From contig OZ210885.1 in NCBI GenBank assembly GCA_964658305.1, positions 18,228,001-18,292,000 on the forward strand: a stretch of 64,000 nucleotides of DNA. The letters run 5' to 3'. Position 1 is the first letter of the stretch. Each line of letters opens with the position of its first letter. The position numbers were made by a program, and so were the translations under genes. Origin of the DNA: Leptogorgia sarmentosa. Lineage: Eukaryota. Below are positions 984 through 52,249 of this stretch, one piece after another. Below the pieces are notes generated by a model. That model was not told the origin of the DNA and did not search any database. It was given only the letters and a program-made list of their open reading frames with translations.

Positions 984-1124
984 TACCGAGACAACCCGTG
1001 GCCAGGGCGAAGCAAGCTTCAATCCCATGGCCGAGGTCCAAAAATCAGTTTAATATATGAGTTAGGACATTGCCTAACATATCAGATATTAAGCTGATAA
1101 GAACAGATACTACACTTGATCTTA
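984..1124 (-). pseudogene. U2: U2 snRNA fragment, nt 22 to about 162 (3' part of the gene split by Tx1 copy A1, truncated at stem-loop IV)
   Basis: Minus strand reads TAAGATCAAGTGTAGTATCTGTTCTTATCAGCTTAATATCTGAT...GATTTTTGG (Sm site)...GGGTTGTCTCGGTA and matches the copy at 49523-49674. Confidence 0.95.
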
Positions 1125-1548
1125 TTTTGTTTTGAACGACGACAGGCTTGTCGACTCCGACGGTGCAATGGAGCCTGGACCCAAACAAGTCGCCGCACCC
1201 AGGGGGGTCACTACAGGTGACGCGGATCGACAGGGGTGGTGAGCCCCTCCCCCGTGCCATGATGCAACCGTGAGTGGATTGCTTCAGGGATCCCTAATGA
1301 TGGTGAAATGGTCAGATGATGATGTTAAGCTAGACAATTACAACAAGAGCAGCAACCCCTACATCAAAACCTGTGCAACCCGCTCGGAACAAGTCCAAGC
1401 GAACCACAGGGCAAAAATTGGAACAAACAGACAACCCAATCCGATACAGGCAGTACAACCAATAAAGGCGACCGTCGAGACCCTAGATCACTACATAGAA
1501 CACAAAGAACGAAAAAGGGAAAAGAGGGAGGGAAGAGAGAAGGGGAAC

Positions 1549-4500
1549 TTAGGTAATAAAGTCCTGAGTAAACCGGATCCAATCCTGCTCAATGAGCGTT
1601 TGTATCAGCCCGTCAGCCAACCACTTGTGAACAAAACTGTCCCGAGGGCAGTGGCGCTTGTGCATGCACACCAGAAAGCGAAAGGTGGTCTTTGCTTTCT
1701 TCAGGGTGGTGGTAACATCTGGGGCAGTGTGGTTGAACCATTGGGCGTTGCGGCTTAGCCAAATGTTGTGTCGTAGCACACCCAGCAGGGCAGAAAAGAC
1801 AACGGGCACATGGATATTGGGAGAGAATCCAAATAAAATAGTATTCGCTGGTAGTGAAGGAGCATTCGGCCGAAATTTACGAAAAATTGACTGGAACCGG
1901 TCGAGGACCGATACCGAAAACGGGCAAGAGCAAACTCTCTTGCGCACCACAAAAGCACAGCGGGTCGACTCTCATGCCAAAACGGACCAGATGATTGGCC
2001 ATGGGTAAAATGCTGTGAAAAGACAGCCAACCAGTGTCTTGGACGGCCCGCACAAAGCGCCACAGGTGTAACGAGGCCCACGCAGCCTGCCATGGGACGT
2101 TAATGTCCCAGTCCCGATATTTCGCCACTGAGCGATGCTCAACAGCGGAAGAGCGCCGGAGCAGGGAATACCCTGTACGAGCTGTTAGCTCAGAGAGGGG
2201 AAGCAACTGTCCTGAAGGACGAGGGATGACCCAATCACTCTGCTCGTTCCTACCTTTCAGGAGGACCCACGCAGTAAACACACCCCGATAACAGGGTGGA
2301 AGTTTTTTAATCAAATATGCTGGCAGAGGATCACGAGTAAGAACGTGAGGTACCGACTGTCTAAACACGCTAGTAACAAGATGGGAAAAAAGGGATGCCC
2401 ACGGGTGGCTATGATGAATAAAAAACCAACCAAGCCATACGGCACGAAGGGACAAAAGTTTATTGTTGATGTCGATGACATTCAGGCCTCCTTCACTAAT
2501 GGGCTGGACGACTGATGTGCGAGCCATCCATTCACGCTTTTTTCCCCAAACAAAAGGAAAGACTATCTTGTTAACTTTAGTCACGACTACTTTTGGCATA
2601 TCAAAGGCAGTCGCCTGGTACCAGAACAGAGACAGACCAAGAGTATTTACGATCAGAGCTCTTCCCCGAAACGACAATTGGCGCTGTTTCCAGACACCCA
2701 ATTGCCGCTCCTTCCAGACACCCAATTGCCGCTCCAACTTCTCCACTAAGGCGTTCCAATCAGCTCCCTCTATATTTGCTATACGACAGCCCAACACGGT
2801 TATAGCGTCGCTAGACCAGTTCAGTTGTATTGGTAGGTCGGTCCGGCCCTTCCAGGACCCGAAAAGGAGACCATGACTTTTGTTAATATTGAGCTTCGCA
2901 CCGTAAGCCAGCTCGTACTGTTCAAAAAGTGAAAAGAGTGACCGCAGGGCCTGCTCAGAATGTACAATGATGGTTGTGTCATCCGCATATTGAAAAATTT
3001 TGACCGTCTCCCCATTTGGCAACTGGAAGCCGTCGACATTTAAATCTTTCTTGATGGCACACGAGATGGTTTCAGCCACAATAATGTATAATAAAGGGGA
3101 AAGAGGACAGCCCTGACGAACTCCCCGAGTGACACTAAAAGCGCCACTGGTGAACCCATTTACTAGAACATGTGAAAAGATGTTCGTATACAAGAGCTTA
3201 ACCCACCCACGAAAGGACAGACCAAAATTCATTTGCTCCAAGGCCCGCAGGATGAACCCCCAATCAACCCGATCGAAAGTCTTTTCTTGATCTAGTGATA
3301 TGATTGCACCTCCAGTATTATTATTATTACAATGGTTAACTAGATCCTGCAGGCCCTGACATTCAGACCTGAGAAGCGTCCAGGAACGCCACAGGCTTGG
3401 GATTCAGAAATGACAGAAGATAGTACTGTTTTTAGGCGATTTGTAAGTACCTTCGATAGTATTTTGTAGTCCGTGCATAGAAGGGAAATTGGTCGCCAAT
3501 TCTTGACATCTAGTCGATCATTTTTCTTGAATAGGAGAGAGATTAAACCAGTACGCTGGGAAAAAGAAAGAGCACCTCGTGCCAGGCAATTGTTGAAAAC
3601 TGCCACTAGATCAGGACCCAAAATGTCCCAAAAGGACTGATGGAACTCATAGGGTAGCCCATCTAGACCTGGAGATTTGTTACGCTTGAAAGAATTCAAT
3701 GCACGCTGGCACTCCTGTAGCGTGACCTCGCCTTCACAAAGCAGGGCTTCTTCTGCAGACAAGAATCGCTCCAAACTGTTTACGAAAAACGACTGATCCA
3801 GAGAAGATAGAATGGACGCAGAAAAAAGTTGCACATAAAAAATGCACCAAACTCGCAAAATCGCGGAGATAGATCTTACAATGGTGCCTTGTGCGTCTCG
3901 GATGCCAGTGAACAAACGCCTCGATGCTCGCACCTTCTCCTGTCTAAAGAAAAAGGCAGAGGAAGTTTCACCTTCCTCGGCCCACTGTTCCTTGCCCCGA
4001 ATGCATGCACCTTCTGCTGTGTAGTGGTGCTCGAGCTCCAATTTATCCTGTGCCTCCTTTATTAGGTGATTCACATCTTCACCGTCGGCAACTTGTTGAT
4101 GAAGATGTTCGAGGGTGGATTCTAGATTATGCATATTCGACCGCCTCGAACGAGCCTTGCCCTGAGAAAAATGACGAATGATTTCCTTCAAACGAGCCTT
4201 GCCTGCCTCCCACCAAATGCCCAGAGACGGAAAAGTAACTTTCTCAGACTGCCACGAGACCCAGAAGTTACGGACCTCCGTGCACAGAGTCTCTTCACGC
4301 AGCAAGGATGTATTGAATTTCCATGCACCAGGACCACTTTGCGGTAAAGATGGAAAGGCCGCGTGGAGGAAGACATAAGAGTGGTCCGAGCGGAAAAAAG
4401 GGAGAATGGTTACTTCCGAAACGTGTTCATGTAATGATGATGATATCCAAAACATGTCCAGTCGGGATGCCTGGGAGCCGTTGGCCCGGCGCCACGTATA

Positions 4501-5106
4501 ACCCCGCTTGTCTGGATGCGCTAGGCGCCAAGTATCGACCAGATCGCACCTATCAGTCAGTGAGGAACGAGAGGCAGGCCAGTTGTAAGCCCAAGGAGAG
4601 TCAGGATTACAACCCAATCGGTCTACATGCGGATCAGCTACCACATTGAAGTCTCCGCATAAAAGAGTGGAAAAAGAAGGGTCAATCATCTGATGTAGAG
4701 AGGAAAAAAAGTCCTCGCCAGCTTGCTTCTGATTTGGACCATATATATTTACAACTTGAGTTATGGACTCAAGGTCAACATGCTTGAAACGCACGACAAT
4801 AACCCGACCACTCGTGTCTCTGTTAATACTTTCCACGCGAAAACACGGCTTGAATAAAATCGCTACCCCCGCACTACGAGTAGTACCTGGGGAAGATTCA
4901 GCAAGATATTGTTGCAAATTATTGTGCTCGAGAGTCTCCGTCTGTAACCAAGAGAGGAATTCCTCTTCAGAGCGACTATGCATTTCTTGTAGAGCAATGA
5001 TGTCAGGTTTGGCACAATTTAGCCAGGAAAAAAGAGTTTGACGATTACGAGTATTGCATAACCCTTGAACGTTTAGGGTTATTCTGGTTACTTCTTGGTT
5101 AGCCAT
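1549..5106 (-). pseudogene. Family A copy 1 ORF2 (APE endonuclease, reverse transcriptase, C-terminal Zn finger), frameshifted
   Basis: ORFs 3340..5106 (LNVQGL, GDFN, SDH, KNWRPISLL), 1877..3241 (GVRQGCPLSP, QYADD) and 1549..1950 lie in different frames. Confidence 0.92.
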
Positions 5107-5175
5107 AATGAGTGTGTGAAAAGATGTACTGTATAAATGATATTACTATTATTATTCTATATAAACAAGGGAGAC

Positions 5176-5736: not shown

Positions 5737-8700
5737 TAAAATACTTCGCAGCCATAAGCTGAATTGCATATTTTTACAAAGAAAGTTAGCTAAATGTGAT
5801 ATAGAATATAAAAAGTTTATAAGCCATTATGATGACATTCTATATAAATATATAATTTTATACACAGGATGTTTATTACTTTAATATACTATAAAATTTA
5901 AAATTATTAAAAATATAAAGTCATTTCAATAACATTAGGTAAAAGATTTGCGGCATGAAGCCACAAAAAAACTAGTTTGAAAACGATTAGTATTACATCT
6001 AGGAATTTCGAATTTCCTATCGTTTCTTAAATCATAAAAAGAAGTATGTGTAGGCAGCAGCAAACTTCGTAACTTATGATTTTCTTCAGCAACTACTGTT
6101 TGAAATAGACTAGTGCAAATATTTTCATGATGAACAGACAGTGACTCCAATCCACAACTAATTAAAGCGTCTTCATAATTAGTGTTAGGACAGATGATTC
6201 TAATAGCTCTTTTTTGTAATCTTTCCAGTTCGGAACGCAAGTATTTTGGCAATGAATAGTAAATGACAAGGATACCATAATCAATAACAGATCGAATACA
6301 TGTAACGTAAAATAGAACCAGATCATTCCGAGGGATACTGGCCCATTTGAGTTGAATCAGATAATAGATTCGTTTGGATACTTTTTTAACTACCTCTTCG
6401 ATATGTAAATTCCACGTCAGCTTTGAAGGACTTTACAACTCTAACACTTTTATTGTTAATAAGTATCGGGTTAAAATCACGAGGGACTTTTGAGAAGGAA
6501 ATACGGAGCTCCTTACATTTCTCTTCATTCAGCTTCATTTTATTGTTTTGGGACCATTGTGACATTTCATTAGCAATTGTCTGTGCTCTACTCTGTTGGT
6601 TTTTGTCAACTGTTTCCGATGCTGTCGTATCGTCCACGTATTTTCATAGGTCAGTATCAGTAATGGATAAATCATTTATCATGATTAAGAAAAGCCATGC
6701 ACCTAATATGGTGCCTTCAGGGACGCCCGAAGGTACTGCACCCCAATCTGAAAAACATCGTTGTGAAAGTTTGACTCTTTGGAATCTGTCGCTTAAGAAG
6801 TCAATAATCCAATTTATGACACTTCGTGGTAGATCTAGCTGAAGTAGCTTGTTGATCAAAATTCTATGATCGATTAGATCGAAAGCTTTTTGATAATCAA
6901 ATAAGATTATTCTAGTTGTAGAACCGGTACCGTCAAGCCCCGAGGTCCAGTTGTGCACCATACTAAGAAGAGCAAATATCGTCGATGATTTAGGAATTGG
7001 TCCGTACTGATTAGGATCGATTTTCTTCAAAACAGCGGGTTTCACATAATCTTTAACAACGAAATGCTCTGCGACCTTCGAAATATTAGGTGTTAATAAA
7101 ATGGGCCTAAGTTCTTTTTTCAGATCCTGTACCATTTTTACTTTTGGCAGCGGTGAAACATTCGCAAGTTTCCATATTGAAGGTAGGCGTTGTTGCTTGT
7201 AGGATGCATTTAGGAGTAGACTAATTGGGAGGGCAAGGATTACAGCATACTCACGCAAGAGCCAATTTGGCACTTCGTCAGGATCACCACTTTTACTAGG
7301 GTTGAGTTTTTGTAACTGTGACAAGACCCTTTCTTCCGAAACTTCTAGGAATTCTGTGTTTTCTTCTAAGTTAAGTTGTTCTAGCGGTGAAGATAATTGA
7401 TATTCTGATAAGGGCTCAAGAAAGGCTGTATTTATTCTGTTTGCTAATTCATGTTCTGATATATCTTCAAGACCAGCAATATTTATCGAATTTATTAGGG
7501 AAATATTCATTGATTTCATTCCTCCTAGGCGTTTGATTTCACTCCACCAAGCTTTAGGGTTTTCTTTCTCTTCACTGTGGACCTAGGTCATGTAGTATTT
7601 TGATTTGCACTCTTTTCTCTCACGATTGACAATATTTCGGTAATATTTAAAACTGTTGGATTTTGGACCGTAACTGAAAAAGGCTTCTTGTCTTTTTTTA
7701 ATGAATACTTTCAGTTTATCGGTCATCCAAGGAACATCTACGGAAATTTTTTTAATCCGTTTAATTGGCATGAGAAAGTCAAGACCAATAGCCACAATAT
7801 CATAGAACTGCTTCGCCATATCTTCGCAGCTTTGTGATTGAGCAAAGATTACAGGCCAATGAATTGAATGTAAAAATCTCCCCATGGCATCTTTCTTGCT
7901 CTGACGAAGATCTCGTTTGTATACAAATGTAGGTTTTGTTTTCTTCACAATGTGAGCGGGTGAAACTACAACTGTATTATGATCGGATAATCCAATTGGA
8001 GGAAGTATTTGCGGAGACTTGTAGAACTCGTGCATGTTAGTTAAAACAAGGTCAAGTATTGCTTCGCTTCGAGTTGGTGATTTAACAATTTGTTTCAATC
8101 GAAAATGCTTAATTATTTGATTCACATTAAGACGATTGAAATCCCCAGCAATGATAATACCGCAGCTGTAAAATTTTGCTTCAGTTTCACTTAATGTCTG
8201 AAATAAGTGGCTCTGCATACTGGTATCATCAGCACTAGGAGGATGATATAAGACGCCAGCTATAATTGAGGAAAATTCACGAGGAAGTCGTCTAGGTTTT
8301 ATATGGAGCCATAAGATCTCGTGTTCAGAACAACATGAAATTTCTGAAAGAATTTTGAGTTTCGTATCGCCGTCTCCGATGTAAATACAGATTCCGCCAT
8401 GGTTGTTTGTAGTTCTATCTTTGCGTATGACTGTAAATCCAGGTATGCTTACAACACTGTCTGTAATTGGGTCATAGAGCCAAGTTTCAGTTAAAAAGGA
8501 TACGTTTATCTCATTTTCCATCATAAATTCGCGAACTTCGTCTATTTTGGGGGCCAAAGATCTCACATTAGACACCATTAATTTTGGAATATAATTACTA
8601 ATCCTCTGTTTTAATGTAGTGGTATTCGGTTGATGGAATTCTGTAGTAAGGGGCTTACATGGCAATATACAATTATTTGGAAAGTCAACAATTTCGTTTA

Positions 8701-10231
8701 TGGGAATATTTATTAAATTACATTTCCCATGACAGTTCACCAATGTGGGGTTCGGTTCGGAGGATAAACTGGAATTTGCAATAATGGTTGTGGAGGGTGA
8801 GGTGGGGGAGGGGGATTGTGTGTTATTCGGGTTACAAGGTCTAAATACTTTTTCCATCCTGGGGGACGACTGTGATTCCTCGAATGTTGTAAAAAATGGT
8901 TTGGATTTTCTCTGTTGTAACTAAACATATTTTGTTTCCTACGCTTTCGGTTCTTACTTGCCTGCGATATTTGCCTGTCGGAACGATGGCTAATTCGCAC
9001 AGGGATCGCAAAAGACTCGTTTGAACTGGGTACGCCTGATTTATCCTGTTGATTAACTGCATTTCCCCCACCATTGCTCGATGATTTATTCCTGCCATTG
9101 CTCGATGATTTATTCCTGCCATGCGGCTGAGACTTTTTGTTGTAATCGTTATTGACTCGGCTTATTAGGTTGTGGTATGAGATCTTTTATACTTTGTCTA
9201 TTACGAGTTATTGCATTTACATCAGAATTAACATCCGACACCTTGTCTTCAAAGCATGACGGAGGGACGCCATGGCCAGATCTTTGTGTTGTTTCCTTGC
9301 ACAATAAGCTATCATTATAAATTTGTTCGGCTGACTTAATTGTGTTTTCTTTACCCTTTTCAATACAAACGCTATGGGTTGGCGATTTCCTTTCCTCTTC
9401 AAGTTCGACGATACGTGATCTTAAATTCAAATTGTCTGTGCGCAATTTGCATAACTCTTGTTTACTTGTTTCAATGATTTCGTCTTGTACGGAAATTCTT
9501 GTCGATAAATTTACTATTTGCGATTTAATCTCATTTTTAAATATTGAGAAACGTGTCTCCATTGAAATCAATTTGTCGTCCTCGCTTTGCTGCAATGGGC
9601 CAGAATTATTACTTATTACGTTCGTAAAATTGTTAGCAGGTTTAACAAGCGGCGAGTCGTTTATGTTTTGAAATGAAATGTCGATGAAGTCCTCAAGCTC
9701 CGTAAGAGTTGATGAATCGACAGCCGATATCGTGTCTTCTTTTGAGGTTGTGGCATTAGCAACATATTGCTCATTCAGACCCTCATCCAACGAATTGTTG
9801 TTATTATTTAAGGCATTCTCAGGCACCGTGTTTGAAATTACTGCCTCGGAACATAGACAGTACGCTGGCGAGCTTTCTTCATTCATACTAATGTCAATAA
9901 ATAGTTCTTTTAATTAGTCGCCCGTTTTGCTCTGAAAGGTTAACGTACCTCGCTCATAGTTCCAACTAAGAATCAAGTCAGTATTGGTGCTTGTAAATTT
10001 TTTATATCTGCCTCCAGGCGACGACCATGTGCCCGTTTGAACAATTACACATTTAATAAAAATTTTCAGCATTTCATAGCTGTCCGTCCATCTGATTCGC
10101 TTTCCGTTATAAGTAAAACATCCTACATCTTTATATCGGAGAAATTCCTCAACATCCCATTCATTTTGATTATTTTTAAGGGAGCTAACAGAGCCCATTT
10201 GAACATGACTGTCGGCCATTGTTATTTATTC
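5737..10231 (-). mobile_element. Nested CR1/L2-group LINE (Daphne/Crack-like), near full length, decayed
   Basis: ORF1 pieces 9914..10219 and 9149..9886 (coiled coil); APE 7583..8857 (LTETWL, AGDFN, LSDH); RT 6644..7519 and 6386..6637 (YVDD); C-terminus 5935..6252. AT-rich. Splits the host ORF1 cleanly when compared with 54690-54720. Confidence 0.85.
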
Positions 10232-10948
10232 TGGCGAACTGCCCGAACTTCCGGAGTTCTCGGCAGGCTCAGAGAGCACCGTGTCCAACAAATTGGTGAT
10301 GGTCTCCCGTACCTGCTCGTGCTCGTTCTCTTGGCCCACCATGGGCCGTACCTCACTACCAGATGTTTCATGGTTAGCCTGTGTTGACCCTACAACAGCA
10401 GGCCGAGATAGAGCGGGGCAAGCCGACTGATTGTGGCCTTCCTGTCCACACCCGAAACAAGGACGTTTTTGGACCTTATGATACACGAAGCACCAGTGGC
10501 CAGCAATTCGCATGCAAAAAGGAATGGGTTGTTTTATTTCCATTAGCACATGCCTGACCCCAGTATAGATATGAGAATACACCTCGGATGAGATCTTGCG
10601 AATCTCACCAAAGCCACTGAGGACTTTGGAAATTTCTTCATCCGGGACCCTGTAAGTCAGGCGGGTAACATTAACCCAGGTGCATTTGGATACCGGCCGG
10701 AATTCGACAGGGAGGCCCCGCACGGTTAAACCCGTATGTTCGGCAACCTCCATGTTCCGAGCTCCCTTAAAGGTCACGCGGAACCGACCAGGCGCCATCA
10801 TCACGACAGCCTCAAACACAGAAGTATAATCATCGACTTGCCTGCTGAACTCATCGATGACCTCCTTTACATTTATTCTGTGCGCCTCGATGCTGTCAGA
10901 AATGATGACATCGCAGGTGCGATTGACGTGAGGAATCATCCTCACCAC
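10232..10948 (-). pseudogene. Family A copy 1 ORF1, N-terminal part (RRM-like region plus CCHC knuckle)
   Basis: MIPHVNRTCDV...CFGCGQEGHNQSAC, homologous to ORFs 39694..40491 and 54408..55217. Confidence 0.88.
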
Positions 10949-12039: not shown

Positions 12040-12065
12040 TCTTAGCCAAAAGGCCGAGAAGTGAT
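12040..12065 (-). pseudogene. U2: U2 snRNA nt 1-26 (5' part of the gene split by A1)
   Basis: Minus strand ATCACTTCTCGGCCTTTTGGCTAAGA (one mismatch to canonical ATCGCTTC). Confidence 0.93.
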
Positions 12066-12222: not shown

Positions 12223-12276
12223 CTCGTCCTGAGAGGACCTCCTAGTTGATCAAGGTGCCTCTCGCGTCAGGTAAGT
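12223..12276 (-). pseudogene. U1: U1 snRNA nt 3 to about 56 (downstream of Tx1 family B; the rest is deleted)
   Basis: ACTTACCTGACGCGAGAGGCACCTTGATCAACTAGGAGGTCCTCTCAGG matches the intact U1 at 48903-49066. Confidence 0.93.
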
Positions 12277-12629
12277 TTATGTTGGATATAGGCAAATCCA
12301 CCCCCACTTGGGAGCGTGCAATGGATTTCCCTAAATCGAGGAGGGTGCTACCGGCACGCAAACGACTAGGGGGACGATCCCTACCTCCTCATTAAATGCA
12401 CCCCGAGAATATTTATTATTCTGATGCCTCGATTAGTGCATTTAATTCTATATAAAAAACAACACATACTAGGACGGAACATGGACCGATGCTCGCCTGA
12501 TACAGGCAGCAACAGGGATTTAAAAAGAGAAACGACCCTACCGAACCGATTCGGGCAGTACAACCAACTAAGGCGACCCCCCTTCATGGAACGGCAGAGG
12601 AAGAAAAAAGGATTAAAAAACCTAAAAGA

Positions 12630-14784: not shown

Positions 14785-15106
14785 TAGGCCGTCGTCGGCT
14801 AAGCATCCAAAAGATGCAATTCCGTTGCACCCCTCTGCGAACTACATAATTTTTACATAATTTAATAGATTAGATCCTACTTTTTCAGAACCACTGCTCC
14901 CCAAGCGAAACAGGTGCACAAATTGAAATAAAGCACCTCCAAAGTTCGGCTAATTCCTATCTTAAAAAATACGATTCTCCATTGTTTTTGTTACAAACAT
15001 GCATGCGTTAAACGGGAAAGCAGCTACTATGCATGCTCAAATTGCAAACACTGATCCCAATACTGTATCTGGAGTTCATACTAGAGACATATATGTCATA
15101 CAATAA

Positions 15107-15307
15107 AGGCCGTGTTACACGATGCAATTTTTCTTGCAACATGCAACGCTATTCTTCTTGCGGAATTAGTGAAGACTGTTTGATTTGTAAAGAATTCATT
15201 GGAAAAATCTAATGAAAACTCATACTTGCCAATTTCACATCCCTCAACAGTCAATAGTAGAATTGCGATGCAAGTTGCAAGAAAAATTGCATCGTGTAAC
15301 AGTGCCT
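15107..15307. mobile_element. PIF/Harbinger-like MITE inside Academ
   Basis: About 40-bp TIR (AGGCCGTGTTACACGATGCAATTTTTCTTGCAAC / GTTGCAAGAAAAATTGCATCGTGTAACAGTGCCT) with TAA duplicated at 15104-15106 and 15308-15310. Confidence 0.8.
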
Positions 15308-15559
15308 TAAAACTAAATAAATTATATAAAAATTGATTACTTCTTTTGTTGCAGATGAAAAATAAATCTCATCGTTTTAAATTTGCTGATAAAAATTATG
15401 GTGCTTTTTGCGTTTAAATCAATGTTTGTGTTTTATATACCATATACGGTCTTGTATCAAACTGCAGTATGGAGGGTAGCATGCATTTGGGGAAGGTTGG
15501 ATTCTACAAACCGCAAAATCAGCATTATTCTTCAAACATGTGATCTGCCAAGACATCAT

Positions 15560-18500
15560 CATCAAACACCAGCTGCTCAAATTCATTCTCATTTTCATCA
15601 TCTTCGATTCCGTTTTCGTCAACATCGATGTTCAAACAGTCACGACAAGCACAGAGATTGGTGCACATTAATTGCGCCTTCAAACAAGCACAGCGCCTTG
15701 TAGAACATCCAGACTGACAGCCACTGACAGTTTACGTTCTCAAGGATTCCATCTGGAGCTGCTGGCATCGTCATCCACTTGATTAATACCTGCCCATTCT
15801 TGCTATCCCAACCACATTCATTGATCGGAGGAAGAGGTAGGGTTGCTTGCAATGCATTTTTCCAGATATATGCTTGGTATGATGAGCGACACGTGTGAAG
15901 CCATAATGCATCTTTTGTACATGGCATTGTGTTGTCGGAATACTGGCCAATACTGAAAATGTTAAAACGTGCATCGTTGACATCGTCAACAAACATATTT
16001 CTGGACATAACAAAATAATTCCTGGGTGACTGCACATGCTGATCCAAGTAACTTGAAGGTGGCAAAGAATTCAGGATACTCTCTAATGTGTTCAACGTCT
16101 TGGTTTTTCCTTTTCCATAAAACGCGCTAGTGCTGTCACAACCTTAAAGAGAAGAATGTTGGACTTAGTGGACCAATCTTCGTTTTTCTATACTGTAATA
16201 CTATTAACAACTAGATTACGAGCTCGATTGCTCGAGATTTCTATGGCATAGCTGACATTTGAGGGGAAAATCCGAACTACCTGTCACTTTATGAAAATTG
16301 AGAACAAGGAATCTAAGTGTTTCAGTGGAATCCCAGTTATTGTATTTGTACAAAAACATTGAAAAATGCGAACTGCATGGAAGGATTTTTTTCAAATGAG
16401 GCGCCAGAAAAGTAAATTAATATCAAACCGAAAAATTTTCTCACCTGTAAATGCATGGAAACCAATGAGAATCACATAGATCAGAGCCAAGTGCTAAATG
16501 TAGTTTACACACATCCAAAATTCTTCTCTGGTTTCCAACACCAGTATCAAAATACATGGCTGCAGGAATTGCTGGTCTATGTCCTAGCATTAAGACAAGT
16601 ACATCCGTGTCAGGGCTGCGAATGATTACATGGTCGTGAAACGTAGAAGCGTGTTGAGCATGAAGTAACATTCGTGTATCCGCTTCTTCGTGATCACTGT
16701 ACAGGTCGGAGCATTCTTCTACGAGAACGCCTTCGCTGGTTATGCTGAATTTATGGCACAGCTTACGTTTTTCAAATGATGGAAAAAGAATTCAACCAAA
16801 GCTTCTTTATTCTTTCTGCTTCAGTTCCACTGACAGGAACTTCTTAAACTGTCTGGGTGCTTTCTGTTGTGGGCCCAGAATCATTATTACGGTTGATCCT
16901 GCATCAGCGCGTTTACTCCTTTCTAGGTTCTTGATGCTCACATCGGGATAGGTGTCACAAACAAAATCTACTCTTGTTGACTTCGAACTTACTGCCCACG
17001 ACAAAATTCGACCAAGAATGCTTTCCACCAATGCTCCAAACGTTTTGGGAATGCGTTTCATTGCCTGGATCAATGCCATTCCATCTAGTATCAAAGCGTT
17101 ATTAAATAGTAGATCTTTGTGTTAAATCCATGTCTTTGCGTGATCTACACAAAAAATTTTTATAAGTAAATCCTAAATTATATCACTCGAGAATCAAGTA
17201 ATGGATTACCCGAGTCAAGTTGGTGGTTTATCACATAATTTGGTAATTATTATATTTGTCGAAATTTGTCTTAAGCAGCGATGTGTGAAGTAATCCAACC
17301 CTGATTTAGGTTTTATAAAACCCGATATCACTGAAGAAATTCATGAATTACCTGCTGTTTGTTGAACTGTCCGCCATTGTGAAACACTGTCTCGTAATAG
17401 CACCACGGTCTGCCTGTGCCAAGATCCATCTGTGCACTGCGTTTTTGTTCAATGTGAATCCAACTATGCCACCTCTAACTTTAGAATCTCGATTGTAAGT
17501 TTGCTCCATAACCTGATCACAAGCAGTGGACGAGAAACCATACGTTTTCTGACGCTGACATGTCCAGTTGTTGATAATGCTATCGGTTGCGCCTATGAAA
17601 TACAAGAAAGAATTACAAAGTACTAATTTTCTCCCATTTTCATGAAAGATTCGTAACATTGCATAACTCCGCAATTTGAAAGCTTGGATCACCTGGGTGT
17701 GATGTTTCAAGACATAACATTTCAAGCCAATAAACCGTTCCATATCTGGCATAGAGGATCCTGTCTGTTGCAAAGAACCATGGTAACATAGATCTCACTG
17801 CTGAGAGATGTAAATCCCAGTTGTTCTCTTGGGTTGCGCGCAAGAATGACAGAAGAGTTTGTACCATCTCAATGTAACTTAGCCACAATGCAAATGTTGG
17901 TTTTCTTTCGGCTTCCGTTTGCCGAAATGTAAAAACAGACGTTTTCAATTCTTCGAATTCTGTTGACATGACTTCGGCGACGTATTCTTCACCAGGGAAT
18001 TTGGTGGCTAGGTTTTCTCAAGCACAAAAAGGGTTATTATTATTCTTTCTTAAATTTCCCATATACTTTAGCTAATGCACATACGTAAATGTTAACTTTG
18101 CGTTTCACAAGTAGATTGCATAAATTTTAATCTCATTTGCAAATCACAACCTGAATCACCTTTTCATTCAAAATTGGGAATATCGGCCATCGTGAAATTC
18201 ATGCCTGGGTTAAATTCCTCAAGACACTTACCGCTCATAGTAATGGTTTCATCCCTTTTATCTTCTGAAAGAGAGTCAAGATATTGTTCAAACAACAATC
18301 TCATCAACGCTTCGTATACAACTTTATGTGACCTGACACTTCCGTTGTAGTGCTTTCCAGACATAACTCCGTTTATTGATCCTACTGCGACAATTTCAGC
18401 CTCAATAAGAATGTCCTATTAAAAGAAAAACCAAACTTAAGTTAGCTTTATTTTGAATTGCATCAAACTGAAAAATCGTTTGACTAAACAAAATTTGTAA

Positions 18501-20958: not shown

Positions 20959-21376
20959 TTGATTATAACTTTTAATGTTTAATTTAAAACAAGCTACATT
21001 GTTGTAACTACGGCGATACTTTTAAAAGAACAAGAAGAAATAACTTTTGAAAACAATGTACTATATTTTGATTCATTGTCCAGTTTCCTGTATTGGGATC
21101 AGTGTTTGCAATTTGAGCATGCATAATAGTTGCTTTCCCGTTTAACGCATGCGTGTTTGTAACAAAAACAATGGAGAATCGTATTTTTTAAGATAGGAAT
21201 TAACCGAACTTTGGAGGTGCTTTATTTCAATTTGTGCACCTGTTTCGCTTGGAGAGCAGTGGATTCTGATAAAGTAGGATCTAATCTATTAAATTATGTA
21301 AAAATTATGTAGTTCCCAGAGGGGTGCAACAGAATTACTTTTTTAAGCACTTTTTCGATGCTCAACCGACGGCCTA

Positions 21377-24498: not shown

Positions 24499-24511
24499 GT
24501 CAGGTAAGTAT
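24499..24511 (-). pseudogene. U1: U1 snRNA nt 1-13 (5' remnant)
   Basis: ATACTTACCTGAC preceded by the same upstream flank as the intact U1. Confidence 0.9.
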
Positions 24512-24950
24512 GACTTCATGGCGCATACGATTACCTTTTATACGCTGCAATCGCGAGGAATGCTTGTGGAACGAATGCATGGGGATGAGTTTGTCTTTCG
24601 ATGGATGGATCGATCGATCTCTCAGACTGCACCGTGTTTGCACGTTCCGAGAATTCTCGACCATATTCAATACGAGTTTACAAAAAAATCAAAGAATGTA
24701 AATCTCATGAACAGCGATACTGCTTTGTTGGCCAACGAGCTACCAAGACAATTATAACATGATTGTGTTAGGCTGCTTACCATGCAAGTATAATTCGTGG
24801 TCGGTCATCCACACTGAATGCTTCATATATACGTATCTCCTGCGAAATGCCTGATCGCGGCGATGATCTATCTGTAAAGGCAAGAATAATTTGTCAGAAT
24901 TTTGAACTGATAGTGAGTGAGAAATCTTCCCCCAATAATGAAATTGGGGG
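24512..24950 (-). promoter_or_regulatory. U2-U1 intergenic spacer including the U1 promoter region
   Basis: Highly similar to 49067-49522. Confidence 0.8.
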
Positions 24951-25102
24951 AAGTGGGCCGTACTCGGAGGTAGTGCAATACCGAGGCAACCCATGGCCAG
25001 GGCGAAGCAAGCTTCAATCCCATGGCCGAGGTCCAAAAATCAGTTTAATATACGAGTTAGGACATTGCCTAACATATCAGATATTAAGCTGATAAGAACA
25101 GA
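24951..25102 (-). pseudogene. U2: U2 snRNA nt 39 to about 190
   Basis: TCTGTTCTTATCAGCTTAATATCTG..., Sm site GATTTTTGG, stem-loop IV CTCGGTATTGCACTACCTCCGAG. Confidence 0.95.
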
Positions 25103-32734: not shown

Positions 32735-35700
32735 TTTTGAGTTGAACGACGTAAGGTCCCGATCATTGCTGATCTGGTTCCGATGGTGCAATGGAACCTG
32801 TACCTTGTGCAGACGCCGCACCCAGGGGGTTGCTACACAGCAAGCAGACCAACAGAGAGTACGACCCTCTCCCCCGTGCCATGAAACGACTCGTGAATGG
32901 CCCAGACGATCAAGTGCTAAGCGCTGTCCCGCCTGGGGATCCCTAACCCTATGATGGTGATTGAATGAAGTAGATGATCTGAAACTGAAGTCGATGACGA
33001 CATGAGCACCCCTGAGTCCACCAGATACCCGTGCAATCCTTGGGAGTTAGACTCGAAAGAACCACGGGCCAAAATTGCGAAACATTACGAGGCCACTATA
33101 CACACCGCATATCGCGGCGAGACAATTAAACATATTACAGGACATACGATATTACTATTTCACGAGTTGTACGAACATTGCCTCGACAGTAAGGAAACAG
33201 TGTACACACAATTAGACTGCCCCATAGACAGCAGTACAACCAATCAAGGCGACCCCCGTATGGTGACAGTAACACAAAAAACAACACACAAGATGGTCAA
33301 GTGCGAAAGTCCTGTCGCAGAATGAGAACGTTGTCGGGAGTGAGGATCCCGATGGCCCCCTTTGCCAGCCATTCACGAGCAAACAGCTCTGGTTTGCAAT
33401 TACGATGTTGGACATGTAGCAGGAATTGAAAAGTTGACTTGACACGGGATAGGATAAAGTCCACATCCGGTTTGGTGGAGTCGAAACGGGAAGCATTCCG
33501 GGTCAACCATAATTGGTGGCGGATAACACCTAACATCGCTGAGTAGGCGACAGGAATTTTGCGAGCTGGATGAAAACCGAAAAGGAGTTCTTGGTCGGTA
33601 GGATATTTGCTGTGCAGAAGGTACTGTTGGAAACGTGCTAAGAACCAGTCGAGCACGTCGATGGCAACTTGACACTCCGTGAATAGATGGACGAGAGTCT
33701 CTGGGCAGCCACAGTGACACTCCCCCAACACTTGTATTCCAAATCGCTTTAGACGATCAGCTGTAGGAAGAATTCCATGGGCAGAAAGCCACGCAGTGTC
33801 CTGTACAGATCGCACATAGTTCCACAGTGATAAATTATGCCACACCCACTTCCACTCTTTAGCTGGCCCTAAGGTATGTGAATGTTCGAAGCAGCGATGG
33901 GAGAAAGCCTTTCGAAGAAGATCATAGGCTAGCTTGGCGCTTAGGTGGTCAATGGTTATATCCGGTGGTTTCGGTGCGCGTACTTTCCAGATCTGTTCCG
34001 AAAGGCTAGGATTCAGTGCTACCCAGGAACAGAGGATGGATTTGTAGAATGCCGGTAGAGCGTGTAAAGAACGGGTAGCGGGGCGTGGATGTAATAGGAT
34101 GTCAGTCATTGATGCTTTGTTGGGAAAAGCACGCATTGCGAAATATTCAAAAAAACCATGCCAACCATGACAAGGACCAAGTAGGTACCGTTTGATCCAT
34201 AAACAATGTAGAGACTGTATCTTACGTCCAACATCAACAGCACCAAGACCACCAGATCCCACAGGTTGGGTCACCGAATTTCGGGCTAACCATTCTCGTT
34301 TCTTGCCCCAAATATATGAAAATGTCAATGAGTTGATCGTTGCCAGTATCTTCGACGGTATCTCTTGGAAGGTGGCGAGATACCAGAAAAGACTCAACCC
34401 AAGAGTCTTTGTTACCATAGTACGCCCACGAAAGGAAAGGTCACGACGCTTCCAGGATTCCAACAATTTGGTGTATTTGTCGAGGGGGGATTGCCAATCC
34501 TTTGAACCGTCATTGCTGATACGACTCCCGAGGACACGAATACAATCTGCTTTCCAATTGAGTTCCACAGGGAAGGTTGACCGAGTACGCCAGGCACCAA
34601 GCAGAAGGCCCTCACATTTACTTGGATTGAGCTTGGCTCCCGATGCTGATTCGTACCGCTTACATGTTGCAAAGAGCTGCAGGATAGATTGATCTGACAT
34701 GACCAACGCCGTAGTATCATCAGCATATTGGCATAACTTTTGTCGAGAGCCATCAGGAAGAGTAAAACCATCAATGCTCGTGTCCTTCTCGATGGTAATA
34801 GCCAAAGCCTCGATCACTAGGATATAAAGTAACGGGGAAAGTGGGCAACCTTGACGGACACCCCTGGAAACAGCAAATGGTTTGGATATAAAGCCATTGA
34901 CAATAACCGCTGAGGAGATATTGGTGTAGAGGAGGCTCACCCACCGTTGAAATGATGGACCAAACCCCATGGCGGATAAAACGTGTGACATGAACGGCCA
35001 TTCCACTCGGTCAAAGGCTTTTTCTTGGTCTAAGGATATAATAGCCGCCGACAAATCTTTCTCATTCGCATACTGAACAATGTCTTTGATTAAACGGATA
35101 TTTGCAGCCGATAATCGACCAGGTATACCGGCAGTCTGAGACAGGGAGACAACCGACGATATGACGAGCAGGAGGCGATTTGCTAAAGCCTTCACGGCGA
35201 TTTTATAGTCTGTATTGAGAAGGGTAATGGGGCGCCAGTTCTTTGGGTTAGTACGTTCGTTTTTCTTATATAACAATGTAATTAAACCTTGCCGTTGAGA
35301 TGTGGACAAGCATCCTTGGTCATACGCTTCATTAAGGACATCTGTGAGGTCTTTTCCCAGTACGCCCCAAAAGTTGATGTAGAACTCAGCTGGAAGGCCA
35401 TCCAACCCAGGGGTTTTGTTCCGTGACATGTTCTTTACCGCTTCAAAGCACTCTTCCACCGTTAGATGTCCTTCACAAAGTTTCTGGTCGTGCGACGACA
35501 AAGTGTGCTCGATATGGGATATGAAAAAGTCAATGTCGTACTCCGTTAAGGGTTGTGAAGTAAATAAATCAGAGTAGAATTCGCGAAACACTTCAAGTAT
35601 GCCATGCGATGTCATTGCCAACGAACTGTCTGGCCTAGCAATGGATTGGATCACAGACTTGGTCGCTCGACGTTTTTCCAGTTGAAAAAAGTATGAAGTG

Positions 35701-37870
35701 GACCGTTCCCCTTCTTCTGCCCATTGTACCCGTGCACGAACTTGGGCTCCTCTCGCTGCTTCCTGCATGAGTAGTTCCAAATCAGCTTTTGCTTCCCCTA
35801 AGTATTCATGGACATCATCTCCTTTCTCCATTCTTCGATTCAGATGGTAAATTGTGGCTTCGAGAGATTTTTTCCTTGATTTGCGTCGAGATGCTTCGCG
35901 ACGTGAGAAAGTCTTAATTCGCTTGCGTAACTCGATTTTTCTGCTATCCCACCAAGCCGTCAATGAGGAAAAGCGATGCTTGTGTTTTTGCCATGATTTC
36001 CAGAAGGTTTCGATCATATTGCGAAAAATTCGGGTTCGTGAGGTGCATAGTATTGAATTTCCAATAGCTTGAGCCAAGGGCTATCTGATCCGGCAAAGAG
36101 AACTCCATATACACGTAGCAGTGATCAGAGCGAAAAAAGGGGAGGATGTCGGTGTGTGAAATACAATCAACCAAGGAAGAGGAGACCAGGAAGAGGTCCA
36201 AACGAGAGGCTTGACTACCATTGGGACGGTGCCAAGTATACTGTTTTTCGGTTGGATGATGTTTTCGCCAAATGTCTGTTAACTCAAAAGTATCCATAAG
36301 AGTACACAATGAGGAAGGATTATTATAAGCCCAGGGCGAAGAAAGGTTACATGATTGGCGGTCAGCCGCTGGATTCAACACGGTATTGAAATCGCCACAC
36401 AGTATTATGGGACAGTCCGGTTGTAGAGCAGGAACCAACGATTCAAAGAAAGGAATGCCGTCCTTTTTATTATTGGGTCCATAAATATTCGCAACTTGAA
36501 AAGTAACGTCCTGATGTTTAAGGATCGCTGCCACTGTTCTACCATCCTTATCGCGAAAGGTTGCTTCTAAACTCAATTCGGACCGAAAAAGAATGGCGAC
36601 GCCACAACTTTTGCTAGTACCCGGTGACGAGACAACTTGATGCGAGATTTTAGATAAGACCGTATTATTCATGTCATCTGTCCATTTCGAGAATTCAGCT
36701 TCCGAGAGAGAATGCGTTTCTTGTAGGCAAACAATGTCAGGCGTAAAACAGTTTAGCCATGAAAAAAGTATTTCCAAACTAGGACGAGCCCGTAGGCCTT
36801 GACAGTTGAGAGTTATCATTTTGATTCTGTTAGCCATTTCGAAAAAATTGTGAAATGTCAGATAGTGCAGTGTTCAGGAGGAACGTATTACCGAGGCTTA
36901 GAGGACCCCGAGAACAAGCTTGGCTTGGTTTTCTTTCGTACAAACTGAGCTGGTGGGACATTGTGTAAGACCTTGCTGCATACTGTCTTCCCCTTCGTTT
37001 TTGTGGACAGGGAACTCCGTGCTGTCCGCAGAGATCCCGCAGATGACTGGGAAAATTGCGAAATTTGAGCACTAGGCTTGCTACGGGGTGTGGTTGGGGT
37101 GGGGGTGAATAGTTGAGGGGATTGCAGGTTGGGAGAAGAGACCGAGCGATCCAATCTCAGGGGTGTTACCACCTTCTTGAGAGGTTCCTGGGAAGTCTTC
37201 GCCTCGCTTTCTTTGCCTGGGATGGGCAGGTTGACAGACGAGTTATCGGTTGCCGCTTGGGGGGGTACCTTTGCAGCAGAAGGATCTGAACCTCTGAATC
37301 TGAATCTTGCTTATGCGCCTTCTTGGTGGAAGTTGAAGAGGGGATCACTGGATCAACTGGAGCTTTTGGTGGGAGAGATTTAACCTCGTTTGCTTGATGT
37401 TCGGGAGGCAACAATGTTGAGTCAGATTGGGATGCAGATGGCGGGTGTTCGGAATTCGAACCCGTTTCACGAGGCACCACCGCGACCGCAGTCTTTGCAG
37501 AAGGAGATGTCCCCACCGGTTTGGACGGGACCACAGTCAATAAGGATGATGATGCACCTGAAACAGCGTCCGCGTAGGTGGGTGTCGCCGGTACCTTGGT
37601 GGATTCAGAGGGACTGGAAGGTGGTGATGACGTTGGCAGTTGTGACGTTGTCTCTGCAGGGCGTGACTTCTGAACGGTCTGGTTTTCACTAGGTGGAGTC
37701 ACCTGGGGTTTGGGGTGTATGTTTCGATTCTGCTTACGCGGACAATCTTTAGATACATGCCCAACTTCTCCACAGGCGAAGCATGATCGAGGTTGACCCC
37801 GATAAAAGATGTTGATGGGGTTACCTTTGATGCGTATACGGGACGGGATATCCGATTATAAAATAGGCGA
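32735..37870 (-). mobile_element. Tx1-clade family D, 5' part of ORF1 missing
   Basis: ORF1 remnant (YRGQPRSCFACGEVGH near 37760-37850, plus 37166..37702), ORF2, and a 3' UTR homologous to family A. Confidence 0.9.
33297..36837 (-). pseudogene. Family D ORF2 (APE, RT, CCHC), apparently with a single frameshift near 36040
   Basis: ORFs 35944..36837 (LNCQGL, CLQETH, GDFN, SDH) and 33297..36077 (QYADD, CHCG..E...HLF..C). Confidence 0.9.
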
Positions 37871-42045: not shown

Positions 42046-42088
42046 CACCGGCCTCTTAAGTGTGCGAGGCAATCAAACACTTATAATC

Positions 42089-48250: not shown

Positions 48251-48273
48251 GTAATCGTGAATCTTTGAACTAA

Positions 48274-48902: not shown

Positions 48903-49066
48903 AGGCGACGAGCGCGAACGCAGGTCCCCACTACCAGAAATTATACGCTCAAGTTACCCACATTAGGGGTAATCGCAGGAGTCAACCCAGTCGAAGTGCA
49001 ATGAAAGGGCCTCATCCTGAGAGGACCTCCTAGTTGATCAAGGTGCCTCTCGCGTCAGGTAAGTAT
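48903..49066 (-). ncRNA. U1: U1 snRNA, full length and uninterrupted
   Basis: ATACTTACCTG 5' end; SL1 GAGAGG..GATCA..CCTCTC; SL2 loop ATTGCAC; Sm site AATTTCTGG; SL4 with TTCG loop; about 164 nt. Confidence 0.96.
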
Positions 49067-49522
49067 GACTTCATGGCGCATACGATTACCTTTTATACGC
49101 TGCAACCGCGAGGAATGCTTGTGGAACGAATGCATGGGGATGAGTTTGTCTGTCGATAGATGGATCGATCTATCTCTCGGACTGCACCGTGTTTGCACGT
49201 TCCGACAATTCTCGACCCGCATATTCAATACGAATTAACAAGAAAATCAAAGTATGTAAATCTCATGAACAGCGATGCTGCTTAAGCTTTGTTGGCCAAC
49301 GAGCAGCTACCCAAGACTATTATAACATGAATGTGTTAGGCTGCTTACCATAATTTGTTCGTCGTCGGTCATCCGCACTGAATAATGATGTCATTATATA
49401 CGTGTCTCTTGCCAAATGCCGGTTCGCGGCGAGGATCTATCTATAAAGTCAAGAATAATTTGTTAGAATTTTTTTGAACTGATAATGAGTGAGAAATCTT
49501 CCCCCAATAATGAAATTAGGGG
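49067..49522 (-). promoter_or_regulatory. U2-U1 intergenic spacer / U1 promoter region
   Basis: Repeat of 24512-24950. Confidence 0.8.
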
Positions 49523-49674
49523 AAGTGGGCCGTACTCGGAGGTAGTGCAATACCGAGACAACCCGTGGCCAGGGCGAAGCAAGCTTCAATCCCATGGCCG
49601 AGGTCCAAAAATCAGTTTAATATATGAGTTAGGACATTGCCTAACATATCAGATATTAAGCTGATAAGAACAGA
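49523..49674 (-). pseudogene. U2: U2 snRNA nt 39 to about 190
   Basis: Same sequence as 24951-25102, with Sm site and stem-loop IV. Confidence 0.95.
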
Positions 49675-50339: not shown

Positions 50340-52249
50340 TTTTGAGTTGAACGATGACGGGCTTGTCGACTCCGACGGTGCAATGGAGCCTGGACCCAAA
50401 CAAATCGCCGCACCCAGGGGGGTCACTACAGGTGACGCGGATCGACAGGGGTCGTGAGCCCCTCCCCCGTGCCATGATGCAACCGTGAGTGGCCTGAACG
50501 ATCCGGTGCTAACCACCTTCACGTCCAGGGATCCCTAACCTAATGATGGTGAAATGGTCAGACGATGATGTTAAGCTAAACAATTACAACATGAGCAGCA
50601 ACCCCTAGATCAACACCTGTGCAACCCGCTCGGAACAAGTCCAAGCGAACCACAGGGCAAAAAATTGGAACAAACAAACAACCCAATCCGATACAGGCAG
50701 TACAAGCAATAAAGGCGACCGCTAGATCTTCATGGGAGGACAATACGAACCAACATTAAACATAAAAACAGATGTGCTGTCCAGTCCAAGACAACGAGAC
50801 AAAAACAAAAAGCGTCCAGAAGGCGACGACAGTACAACCACTGAAGGCGACCATCGTGCCCCTAGACCACTACATAGAACATAGGGAACGAAAAGAGGAA
50901 AAGAGGGAGGAAAGAAAGAAAAAAGGGATCAGGTGATAAAATCCCTGGTAAAGCGGATCCAGTCTTGCTCTGTTAATGAGCCAATAACGCCGTCTGCCAG
51001 CCACTCGTGGACAAACCGGTCCCGAGGGCAATGCCGCTTGTGCATACGCACGAGAAAGCGGAAGGTGGTCTTAGCTTTCTTCAGGGTGGTAGGTATATCT
51101 GGGGCAACGTGATCAAACCGTTGGGCGTTGCGGCTCAACCAAATGGTGTGTCTTAGTACACCCAGCAAAGCAGAAAATACAGCGGGCACATGGCTAGTGG
51201 GAGGGAACCCAAATAAAATAGTACTCACTGGCAGTGAGGGCGCATTCGGCCGAAATTTACAAGAAATGGAGTGGAACCAGTCGATAATAGTGACTGAAAT
51301 TGGGCAAGAGGTAAACAAATGTAGCAGATTCTCTTGCTCTCCACAAGAGCACAGGGGATCCACCCTCATGCCAAATCGAACCAACCGATCGGCCGTGGGT
51401 AGGATGCCGTGGTATGACAGCCAAGCAGTGTCTTGCACTGACCTCACAAAGCGCCACAGGTGTAATGAGGCCCACGCAGCAGGCCATGCGACGTCGATAC
51501 CCTAGTCTCTAAACTTTGCCACGGAGCGATGCTCAACGGTGGAGGAACGCCGGAGCAGGGAATACCCTGTACGAGCAGTCAGCTCGGGGAGAGGAAGCAA
51601 TTGCCCAGAAGGACGAGGGATGACCCATTCGCCCTGCTCGATCCTACCCTTCAAGAGGACCCATGAGGAAAGTACACCCCTATAACAAGGAGGTAGTTTT
51701 TTTATTAAGTAGACTGGGATGGGATCCCTAGCCAAAACATCAGCAACCGACTGATTGAAAACCACCTCAATGTGGTGCGAAAAAAAAACAAGACCATGGG
51801 TGTAAGCGGTTAACAAAAAAGTGACGTAGCCAAACGGCACGAATGGACAAAATTTTAGTTGAGACGTCCACAATATTTAAACCACTGTCTCCGATGGGCT
51901 GGACCACGGATGTGCGTGCCATCCATTTGCGCTTTTTCCCCCAAACAAAAGGAAAAATTATTTTATTTATTTTAGCAATCGTCATTTTTGGCAGGTCGAA
52001 AATTGTCGCTTGGTACCAGAAGAGCGACAGCCCCAAGGTATTTACAGCTGATGCTGTTTCCATAGTGACAGTTGCTGGTCTAACTTTGCAACCAAGGAGT
52101 CCCAGTCAGCAGATTCTATGTTTGCAACCCGACACCCCAACACAGTTATGGCGTCGCTAGACCAATTGAGCTGAACAGGAAGGTCAACCCTATTCTTCCA
52201 GGTGCCAAAAAGAAGACCATGACTTTTAGTAATGTTTAATTTTGCGCCA

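Follow-up and report, generated by a model that had tools for sequence, protein, structure and literature searches.

Retrotransposons of the Tx1 clade that reside in snRNA genes are already known. The accessible part of PMC4640811 lists only Keno and Utopia (both in U2), Dada-U1 and Dada-U6 as snRNA-targeting elements and gives U2 nt 39 as the start of the 3′ flank of Keno and Utopia, and a tree legend in the accessible part of PMC4494074 adds U5 as a target. The same parts of these two papers describe neither a 3′ RNA structure nor a U1A site for Keno-type elements, and little is known about Tx1 host factors or 3′ signals. For the spliceosomal proteins U1A and SNF, by comparison, the RNA ligand is described in detail: according to the available sections of PMC2203988, U1A contacts AUUGCAC together with the closing CG pair, and human U1A loses 5 kcal/mol when loop position A1 is changed to G; the available text of PMC5992148 defines the U1 SLII type by a C:G closing pair and a C at loop position 7 and reports that SNF binds it tightly without U2A′; and the majority of metazoans carry one SNF, as stated in the consulted part of PMC4114683. 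Here, we analyzed a 64,000-nt window of the Leptogorgia sarmentosa assembly (contig OZ210885.1) and other genomes, and describe a Tx1 lineage with what appears to be a new 3′ RNA module, the sequence of which itself points to a candidate host protein because it bears a putative site for a host splicing protein.

Mobile elements fill the window, which is a cluster of animal U2 and U1 snRNA genes. Rfam identifies one U1 gene, three U2 pieces and one U1 5′ fragment, and Pfam identifies several ORF2 proteins with APE endonuclease and reverse transcriptase (RT), ORF1 proteins with CCHC knuckles and one BEL-type LTR element. The host genes and all Tx1 and Utopia elements treated here, including their flanks, ORFs and terminal domains, are on the minus strand. 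The intact U1 gene (48903..49066) carries AUUGCAC in a C-G-closed SL2 loop (48996-49002); its SL1 loop reads GAUCAACUAG and differs from the Rfam consensus. Host U2 sequence from nt 39 onward is present at 49520..49674, with a second copy at 24948-25102, and is preceded by a Utopia-type end in which AAUAAA is present and the heptamer absent. The heptamer is also present in host U2 SL4 (49545 and 24973), confirming that both U1 SL2 and U2 SL4 carry it, as the first-pass annotation had stated. A BEL/Pao-type LTR element with terminal repeats of ~230 bp lies at about 41826-48510, upstream of a U2 promoter copy, and a 4.7-kb tandem duplication (52250-56935 / 56935-61620, 99.98% identical) is either recent or an assembly artefact.

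Three Tx1 families, A, B and D, are inserted in these genes. The first copy of family A (A1) spans 12039 to 1125 and is flanked by U2 nt 1-26 (12040..12065), which follows a U2 promoter, and by U2 nt 22 onward (984..1124), which is cut again ahead of SL4; the insertion has generated a 5-bp duplication, TAAGA (U2 nt 22-26). The A1 ORF2 (1552..5142) encodes APE endonuclease and RT and is frameshifted, and a CR1/L2-like insertion interrupts the element at about 5740-10240. The second copy (A2) joins U2 nt 22-38 (50323-50339), with a Utopia-type RLE fragment beyond. Family D joins TAAGAT (U2 nt 22-27) at the end of its terminal domain (32735), the same U2 position as in A, and its ORF2 (33297..36873; APE endonuclease, RT and zf-RVT) has one frameshift. 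Family B extends from 24498 to 12277 between U1 nt 1-13 (24499..24511), which follows a U1 promoter, and U1 nt 3 onward (nt 3-56 at 12223..12276), with an 11-bp duplication (U1 nt 3-13); its ORF2 is split by an insertion (14810-21344) bounded by inverted repeats of ~255 bp that is probably a DNA transposon. Because their ORF2s are broken, the Tx1 copies in the window are not young. Utopia-type RLE 3′ fragments (49674-50322 and about 25102-25720) adjoin nt-22 Tx1 copies in the same genes, and these two ends share with the published Keno and Utopia the 3′ flank beginning at U2 nt 39.

In support of a Tx1 affiliation, Pfam finds APE, RT and a C-terminal zinc motif in ORF2 and CCHC knuckles in ORF1, one ORF2 homolog is annotated as "Transposon TX1 uncharacterized 149 kDa", and the named ORF2 relatives are octocoral proteins only, with 41-47% identity. 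Insertion is sequence-specific with target duplication, and the same junctions recur in other genomes and sequencing runs. Just past the ORF2 stop, all three families have a 23-nt motif (A1, 1451..1473; D, 33232-33254; B, 12556-12578; twice in A2). This motif, also present at 25730-25793 of the window and in loci L024-L083, is common to heptamer-bearing Tx1 elements and those at U2 nt 39, is often in tandem, may fold into a small stem-loop with an internal loop and is absent in some young families (L086, L087).

The 3′ ends of A, D and B consist of a multibranch junction followed by a long stem capped by C-AUUGCAC…G, and the junction is common to B as well. In A1 (1125..1262), a closing stem (1249-1257 with 1195-1206) encloses a T-arm-like hairpin (1232-1248), a linker (1222-1231) and a GUA-loop hairpin (1207-1221). 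A basal stem (about 1189-1196 with 1136-1143) then encloses a predicted U1A/SNF-type hairpin (1153..1175) with a 6-bp stem, a C-G closing pair and an 11-nt loop that begins with AUUGCAC (1163-1169), 38 nt from the element/target junction at 1125, and is followed by a short A-rich tail (1125-1135). A2 (50340..50475) has the corresponding hairpin at 50368-50390 and the heptamer at 50378-50384, 38 nt from the junction at 50340, and D (32735..32882), which contains an additional small hairpin on the 3′ side, has them at 32776-32798 and 32786-32792, 51 nt from the junction at 32735. In B (12277..12390), the closing stem (12384-12390 with 12338-12344), T-arm-like hairpin (12367-12383) and GUA-loop hairpin (12345-12357) precede a predicted internal-loop U1A-type site, in which the heptamer (12316-12322, 39 nt from the junction at 12277) lies between a stem (12323-12328 with 12294-12299) and a capping hairpin (12300-12315).

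On re-reading the window, all sequences and coordinates quoted in the first-pass annotation were correct, and some of its structural statements need revision. It had described the 3′ end of B as otherwise different from that of A and D, but B has their closing stem, the hairpin of 5 bp and 7 nt, the GUCG..GC linker and the GUA-loop hairpin. It had also described compensatory changes in each hairpin between A and D, and these are real but fewer than implied: hairpin 1 has a single pair altered on both sides, hairpin 2 has two such pairs (only if a 1-nt insertion in the loop is allowed for) and the heptamer stem has one. The heptamer is open in the predicted folds of A1 and A2 and costs 0.5 kcal/mol to open in D; in B it is paired in the MFE structure with an opening cost of 2.0 kcal/mol, compared with 0-4.7 kcal/mol in the ends of the G001 bin introduced below. 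D contains AUUGCAC a second time (33031), and A has GUUGCAC in the corresponding place; both are inside a predicted stem and were rejected as sites.

We extended the comparison with two independent samples collected using patterns that did not include the heptamer. For sample 1, metagenome contigs were scanned for the 23-nt post-stop motif, yielding 66 loci, of which 33 are Tx1-type and 33 were dropped as chance matches, having neither a Tx1 protein match nor a shared UTR. For sample 2, genome contigs were scanned for the T-arm-like hairpin plus linker, and the matches were animal snRNA/5S array contigs filed within one bacterial genome bin, G001. This bin (L086-L134; contigs C5, C11, C42, C46, C57, C68 and C71) contains U2-U1-5S arrays, a tRNA cluster and intact Tx1, representing host contamination. 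An RNA model, R1, was built from the alignment of 11 complete ends from sample 1, i.e. without window sequences. R1 has 15 matches in G001, where several Tx1 copies have an unbroken ORF2 of 1155-1202 aa. In the window, B is its top match (25.7 bits, E 0.0019) and A1 the third (13.1 bits, E 0.54), and A2 and D are unmatched at E ≤10; homology of the A/D junction is accordingly supported by its architecture and by the weak A1 match. Viral contigs gave 18 matches to the U2-junction pattern, all 18 due to chance, one match without ORF2 to the post-stop pattern and zero matches to the T-arm pattern, and no relative turned up when genome and viral contigs were scanned with protein anchors.

The first question raised by a 7-nt motif is whether it is a chance occurrence in GC-rich ends. 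In the window, bare AUUGCAC is indeed at chance level (14 occurrences versus 10.2 ± 3.3 expected; 14 was reached in 17 of 100 shuffles), and single-sequence folding-energy z-scores are unremarkable for A1 (-0.19), A2 (+1.62) and D (-0.25), with B at -2.72. However, of the 39 heptamers in the window plus the 33 Tx1-type loci (353,562 bases searched on both strands), 12 are in a C-G-closed loop of 10-11 nt on a stem of at least 5 bp, whereas shuffled sequences contain a mean of 0.04 such hairpins (maximum 1, n=200). All 12 are located at Tx1 3′ ends, and the exact site is present in 25 of the 30 ends of the clade tallied below. These counts refute chance, the likelihood of which we regard as negligible.

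For covariation, we used the 11 complete non-window ends with 36 named pairs, excluding window sequences. In this alignment, 91.6% of cells are paired (shuffles, 83.8 ± 0.8%; slid controls, 46-56%) and 17 of the 36 pairs change on both sides (shuffles, 6.5; slid controls, 3-5). Five of these 17 fall in the basal helix (helix 6), where a one-column slip of L029 inflates the count, and because the L029 row is misaligned and kinship can beat such shuffles, the counts do not amount to a significance test. RNAalifold recovered the same fold from this alignment unprompted. In the heptamer stem, five of seven pairs change on both sides around a fixed C-G pair and loop. A comparison of 15 hairpins, drawn from the window and from other genomes, showed a C-G closing pair in 14 (10 of 11 among the non-window aligned ends); loop positions 1-7 are conserved in 14, 15, 15, 14, 15, 15 and 15 hairpins, respectively, positions 8-10 are variable, and the five stem pairs next to the closing pair are paired in 72 of 75 cells using up to six pair types. 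Of note, a pseudoknot or triple helix is conceivable in L029, L043, L049 and others, where it could involve a U-rich strand inside the basal stem together with the short A-rich tail.

Sequencing runs from elsewhere provided further copies. Family A contigs were found in four runs from three studies with three organism labels. In the three runs that cover the hairpin region (1132-1179; X4 does not), no listed variant reaches 5%, and 1180-1193 is variable in X8. The main hairpin-1 loop of family A in the runs is UUCAUGA, and loose ends confirm the junction at U2 nt 22. For family B, the main contig in X4 keeps the heptamer with a strengthened capping hairpin, and X8 has a G-C to A-U change in the closing stem; the B heptamer hairpin is uncovered in X2 and X8. 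Two B copies speak against the U1A/SNF-site reading: one, which has CpG-type changes, shows AUUGCAU in place of the heptamer, and a second is joined to U1 and lacks the module altogether.

Stems that covary while the heptamer and C-G pair stay nearly fixed and loop positions 8-11 vary are, as predicted from the alignments, the signature of a U1 SL2-type U1A/SNF site. AUUGCAC stands at the start of the loop, as expected for U1 SL2, in all four window ends and exactly so in 25 of 30 clade ends. The proposal in the first-pass annotation that the loop is a conserved, covarying site of the U1A/SNF type is thus borne out by the pair counts, RNAalifold, the tally of 30 ends and the comparison of 15 hairpins, and we consider it highly probable that the terminal loop is an SNF site. 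In loci L066 and L125-L130, the hosts have AUAGCAC in U2 SL4, while the window host keeps AUUGCAC; because of this difference, the element loop in the G001 host matches U1 SL2 only. We also considered that ORF1p or ORF2p reads the loop without any host protein, the resemblance to U1 SL2 dating from an ancient capture of target-gene sequence. U1 genes are indeed where the elements reside, an RRM is faintly matched by one ORF1 (E 0.079), and the tails of stringent LINEs and SINEs combine variable stems with conserved loops (PMC3747384, in the part available). Nevertheless, the conserved letters are exactly those read by U1A and the free letters those that U1A ignores, across ORF2s that are ~40% identical; the site has been duplicated and recast as an internal loop; and an ORF1 compared with solved structures matched zinc knuckles only and no U1A-family RRM. 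We therefore regard reading by an element-encoded protein as improbable.

While the loop is of U1 type, the fold as a whole is not "U1-like", as it had been called. The heptamer stem is outside the junction, the U1-70K loop is not kept, and Sm-like sites are not conserved: Sm-like strings occur in 10 of the 30 ends, scattered, and recur in one non-autonomous group only. We also rejected a U1 snRNA mimic, as the module lacks the four-way junction that holds the AUUGCAC arm and the U1-70K loop and is not matched by Rfam U1; the Rfam search of the module detected no ribozyme and no other family. The first hairpin of the module, as modeled, resembles a tRNA T-arm, which has 5 bp and a 7-nt loop with the consensus UUCRANY. 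The non-window clade fits this consensus, and the window families have 5 bp and 7 nt with the N-U-C-R core only; the stretch after this hairpin we take to be D-loop-like. A tRNA or tRNA-derived SINE piece was discarded, as neither ARAGORN nor Rfam calls a tRNA in the module. In the non-window clade, the T-arm-like hairpin also matches the B-box consensus, with an A-box-like stretch behind it, so the upstream junction might consist of Pol III promoter boxes acting in DNA, or of a captured tRNA-derived piece, unrelated to the heptamer. However, these boxes are in reverse order, the stems covary as RNA, the two programs find no tRNA there, and the window families keep the hairpin without the B-box letters, making this reading very unlikely.

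To relate the site to poly(A) signals, targets and lineage, we tallied 39 3′ ends, i.e. 30 of the clade, seven of Tx1 elements at U2 nt 39 (the Keno site) and two of Utopia; identical or same-insertion copies (L036, L053, L054, L057, L068, L093 and L096) were left out, and many of the clade ends that remain are near-copies. Among the 30 clade ends, 25 have an exact terminal AUUGCAC after C, three have a one-letter variant (L031, AUUACAC; L090, UUUGCAC; L100, AUCGCAC at the terminal site) and two a deletion (L044, L094). The change in L090 is A1U rather than the A1 to G substitution for which a cost to human U1A is published. The internal-loop form with capping hairpin is present in nine of the 30, including window B. 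In G001, many U1-inserted ends have two sites, a hairpin loop of 11-13 nt and an internal loop with the heptamer opposite one or two bases beneath a small capping hairpin, as in window B; eight of 13 G001 ends have two sites, on separate arms, and window A, D and B have one each. Four U1-inserted elements of 1.0-1.9 kb without an ORF2 match (L125 4769-6049; L128, C68 24069-25111; L127 2202-3976; L130 9332-11247) retain the junction with one or two sites and are likely non-autonomous Tx1 derivatives; one of them encodes a zinc-knuckle protein resembling ORF1. Five clade copies combine an unbroken ORF2 with a 3′ side that lies within the contig. Only two of these have a perfect site in an intact stem, which counts against every reading considered here; the others are L090 with UUUGCAC, L097, which keeps the heptamer and has lost its 3′ stem strand, and one without the whole domain.

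In trees based on C-terminal and RT alignments, which comprise only unnamed relatives, the heptamer elements fall into three deep groups (A/D, B and a U1/U5/tRNA group) on one side of a branch, with the elements at U2 nt 39 outside (SH-aLRT 92, midpoint root). L069, whose RT groups with the heptamer elements, was rejected as an exception because it is a nested locus, its first 2.3 kb being 82.6% like L029 and the rest 85.5% like L061. The terminal module follows lineage, not target, and probably arose once. A U5-joined Tx1 family (L031 4247-4364; L076, L053) includes the L031 copy with a broken heptamer and AAUAAA right before the A-run, and a partial Tx1, L104 (L132 near 7930), keeps the hairpin, ends 4 nt upstream of a tRNA-Gln(CTG) gene and possibly represents a tRNA-gene-targeting family, based on one copy only.

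These relationships bear on the suggestion of the first-pass annotation that the bound protein leads the element to its target, i.e. that loop-bound SNF would bring the RNP to snRNA gene arrays or Cajal bodies. Consistent with such homing, U1, U2 or U5(-like) sequence adjoins 23 of the 30 clade ends, and two-site ends are most frequent among U1-inserted elements. However, the heptamer is present in none of the seven U2 nt 39 Tx1 ends and neither of the two Utopia ends, although these elements reach the same arrays; it is kept in all seven clade ends at non-snRNA insertions (flanks checked with Rfam), one of them the end next to tRNA-Gln; and target choice is mainly set by the endonuclease, according to the accessible portion of PMC4494074. 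Because neighbors in the same arrays lack the loop and off-array copies keep it, homing is weakened and seems unlikely. The presence of the loop in Tx1 with other targets, which the first-pass annotation had named as counting against its proposal, thus speaks in part against homing and not against binding.

In contrast, the alternative suggestion, a 3′ end independent of poly(A), is strengthened by how seldom the site co-occurs with A(A/U)UAAA: this signal is present in the last 60 nt of two of 30 clade ends, both running directly into the A-run, versus six of seven U2 nt 39 Tx1 and both Utopia ends. Of note, because the module is a lineage trait of probably single origin, this contrast amounts to roughly one evolutionary change, and lineage history alone could yield it. 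In the clade, the multibranch junction with the T-arm-like hairpin is followed by a long stem showing one or two U1 SL2-type loops, ~40-55 nt before an A-run of 2-10 nt and the target junction. We favor, with reservations, a working model in which the last 110-190 nt form a conserved covarying module whose AUUGCAC loop would bind host U1A/SNF and guard a 3′ end without poly(A) signal; compared with the binding itself, the 3′-end role is held with moderate confidence. In this model, the element would be transcribed from the snRNA promoter upstream of the insertion; co-transcription with the target is discussed in the part of PMC4494074 available to us. ORF2p would dock on the junction together with the basal stem, as described for stringent LINEs (PMC3747384, sections at hand), which fits the retention of the module in ORF2-less elements. 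SNF would bind the loop(s), taking over the job of the poly(A)-binding protein on L1-type RNAs in stability, export or translation, and RNP assembly, and the target would be picked by the endonuclease, not by SNF.

Two-site and internal-loop forms also recall the PIE, in which, as far as described in the accessible part of PMC9977717, site duplication leads to U1A dimers and to inhibition of poly(A) polymerase. By analogy with U1A on its own PIE, the loop could be a feedback sensor: each insertion would destroy a U1 gene, and free SNF would rise, bind the element RNA and damp its processing, making the load on an essential gene array self-limiting. Intact and disrupted U1 genes do exist side by side in G001 arrays. 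However, the PIE acts beside a poly(A) signal, and 28 of the 30 ends have none; families A, D and B of the window are single-site, the doubling of a repressive site would profit non-autonomous elements little, and the sources in the parts consulted do not mention inhibition of poly(A) polymerase by invertebrate SNF. Such a feedback sensor is, in our estimate, rather doubtful. Returning to the guarding of the 3′ end by SNF, we also entertain, tentatively and as a speculation by analogy, a broader version in which the whole lineage swapped the poly(A) tail for a borrowed snRNP protein, with a tRNA-elbow-like dock for the RT and one or two SNF/U1A loops; SNF might then be a required host factor of the RNP, comparable to SLBP on histone mRNA, and non-autonomous elements might double the site in competition. 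As the supply of free SNF depends on the number of intact U1 genes, the loop might in this version also link element activity to array damage.

A literature search for U1A and retrotransposons found nothing relevant, a search for Tx1 with U1 and U2 snRNA in the literature from 2016 found none, and PMC8869645, in the part available, added nothing on novelty. The target sites U2 nt 22 and U1 nt 3 were not found in the accessible parts of PMC4640811 and PMC4494074 and may already be recorded in Repbase Reports. If the model is correct, the RNA of a retrotransposon would use the site of a spliceosomal protein, for which we found no case in the literature searched, L1/Tx1-type elements would have a second way to end an RNA without poly(A), and U1A/SNF would have natural ligands beyond snRNAs and PIE-type mRNA sites. 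The analysis also yielded the two target sites, intact young copies and a compact RNA module outside Rfam families.

Compared with known systems, the elements resemble Keno and other snRNA-targeting Tx1 (PMC4494074, PMC4640811, each in part), for which U2 and U5 targets are listed, in being Tx1-clade elements with APE and RT in snRNA genes. Tx1 elements at the Keno site lack the module in all seven ends examined. Unlike Keno at U2 nt 39, A/D join U2 nt 22 and B joins U1 nt 3, and because their 3′ flanks differ, they use sites other than those of Keno and Utopia. With U1 SL2 (PMC2203988, PMC5992148, available sections), the loop shares AUUGCAC on the 5′ side, the C-G closing pair and free 3′ loop positions; in contrast to U1 SL2, it belongs to the end of a retrotransposon RNA of 5-6 kb, its stems are unrelated, its loops measure 10-13 nt or are internal, and the remainder of U1 is missing. 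The PIE of the U1A and SMN2 mRNAs (PMC9977717, accessible portion) likewise places U1A sites near an mRNA 3′ end and occurs in two-site and internal-loop forms, but here 28 of 30 ends have no poly(A) signal, paired sites are on separate arms, and the host probably has SNF rather than vertebrate U1A. Like the 3′ stem-loops of stringent LINEs (eel UnaL2, SART1 and maize L1; PMC3747384, in part), the module is a covarying terminal structure shared with non-autonomous derivatives; it is larger and multibranched, with a T-arm-like hairpin and a loop of host-protein type. Finally, SINEU and Tx1-Mar of crocodilians, as presented in the part of PMC4494074 at hand, also tie Tx1 machinery to U1/U2-derived RNA, but there the snRNA pieces are copied heads or bodies, whereas here the putative protein-binding loop alone, on new stems, is placed at the 3′ end.
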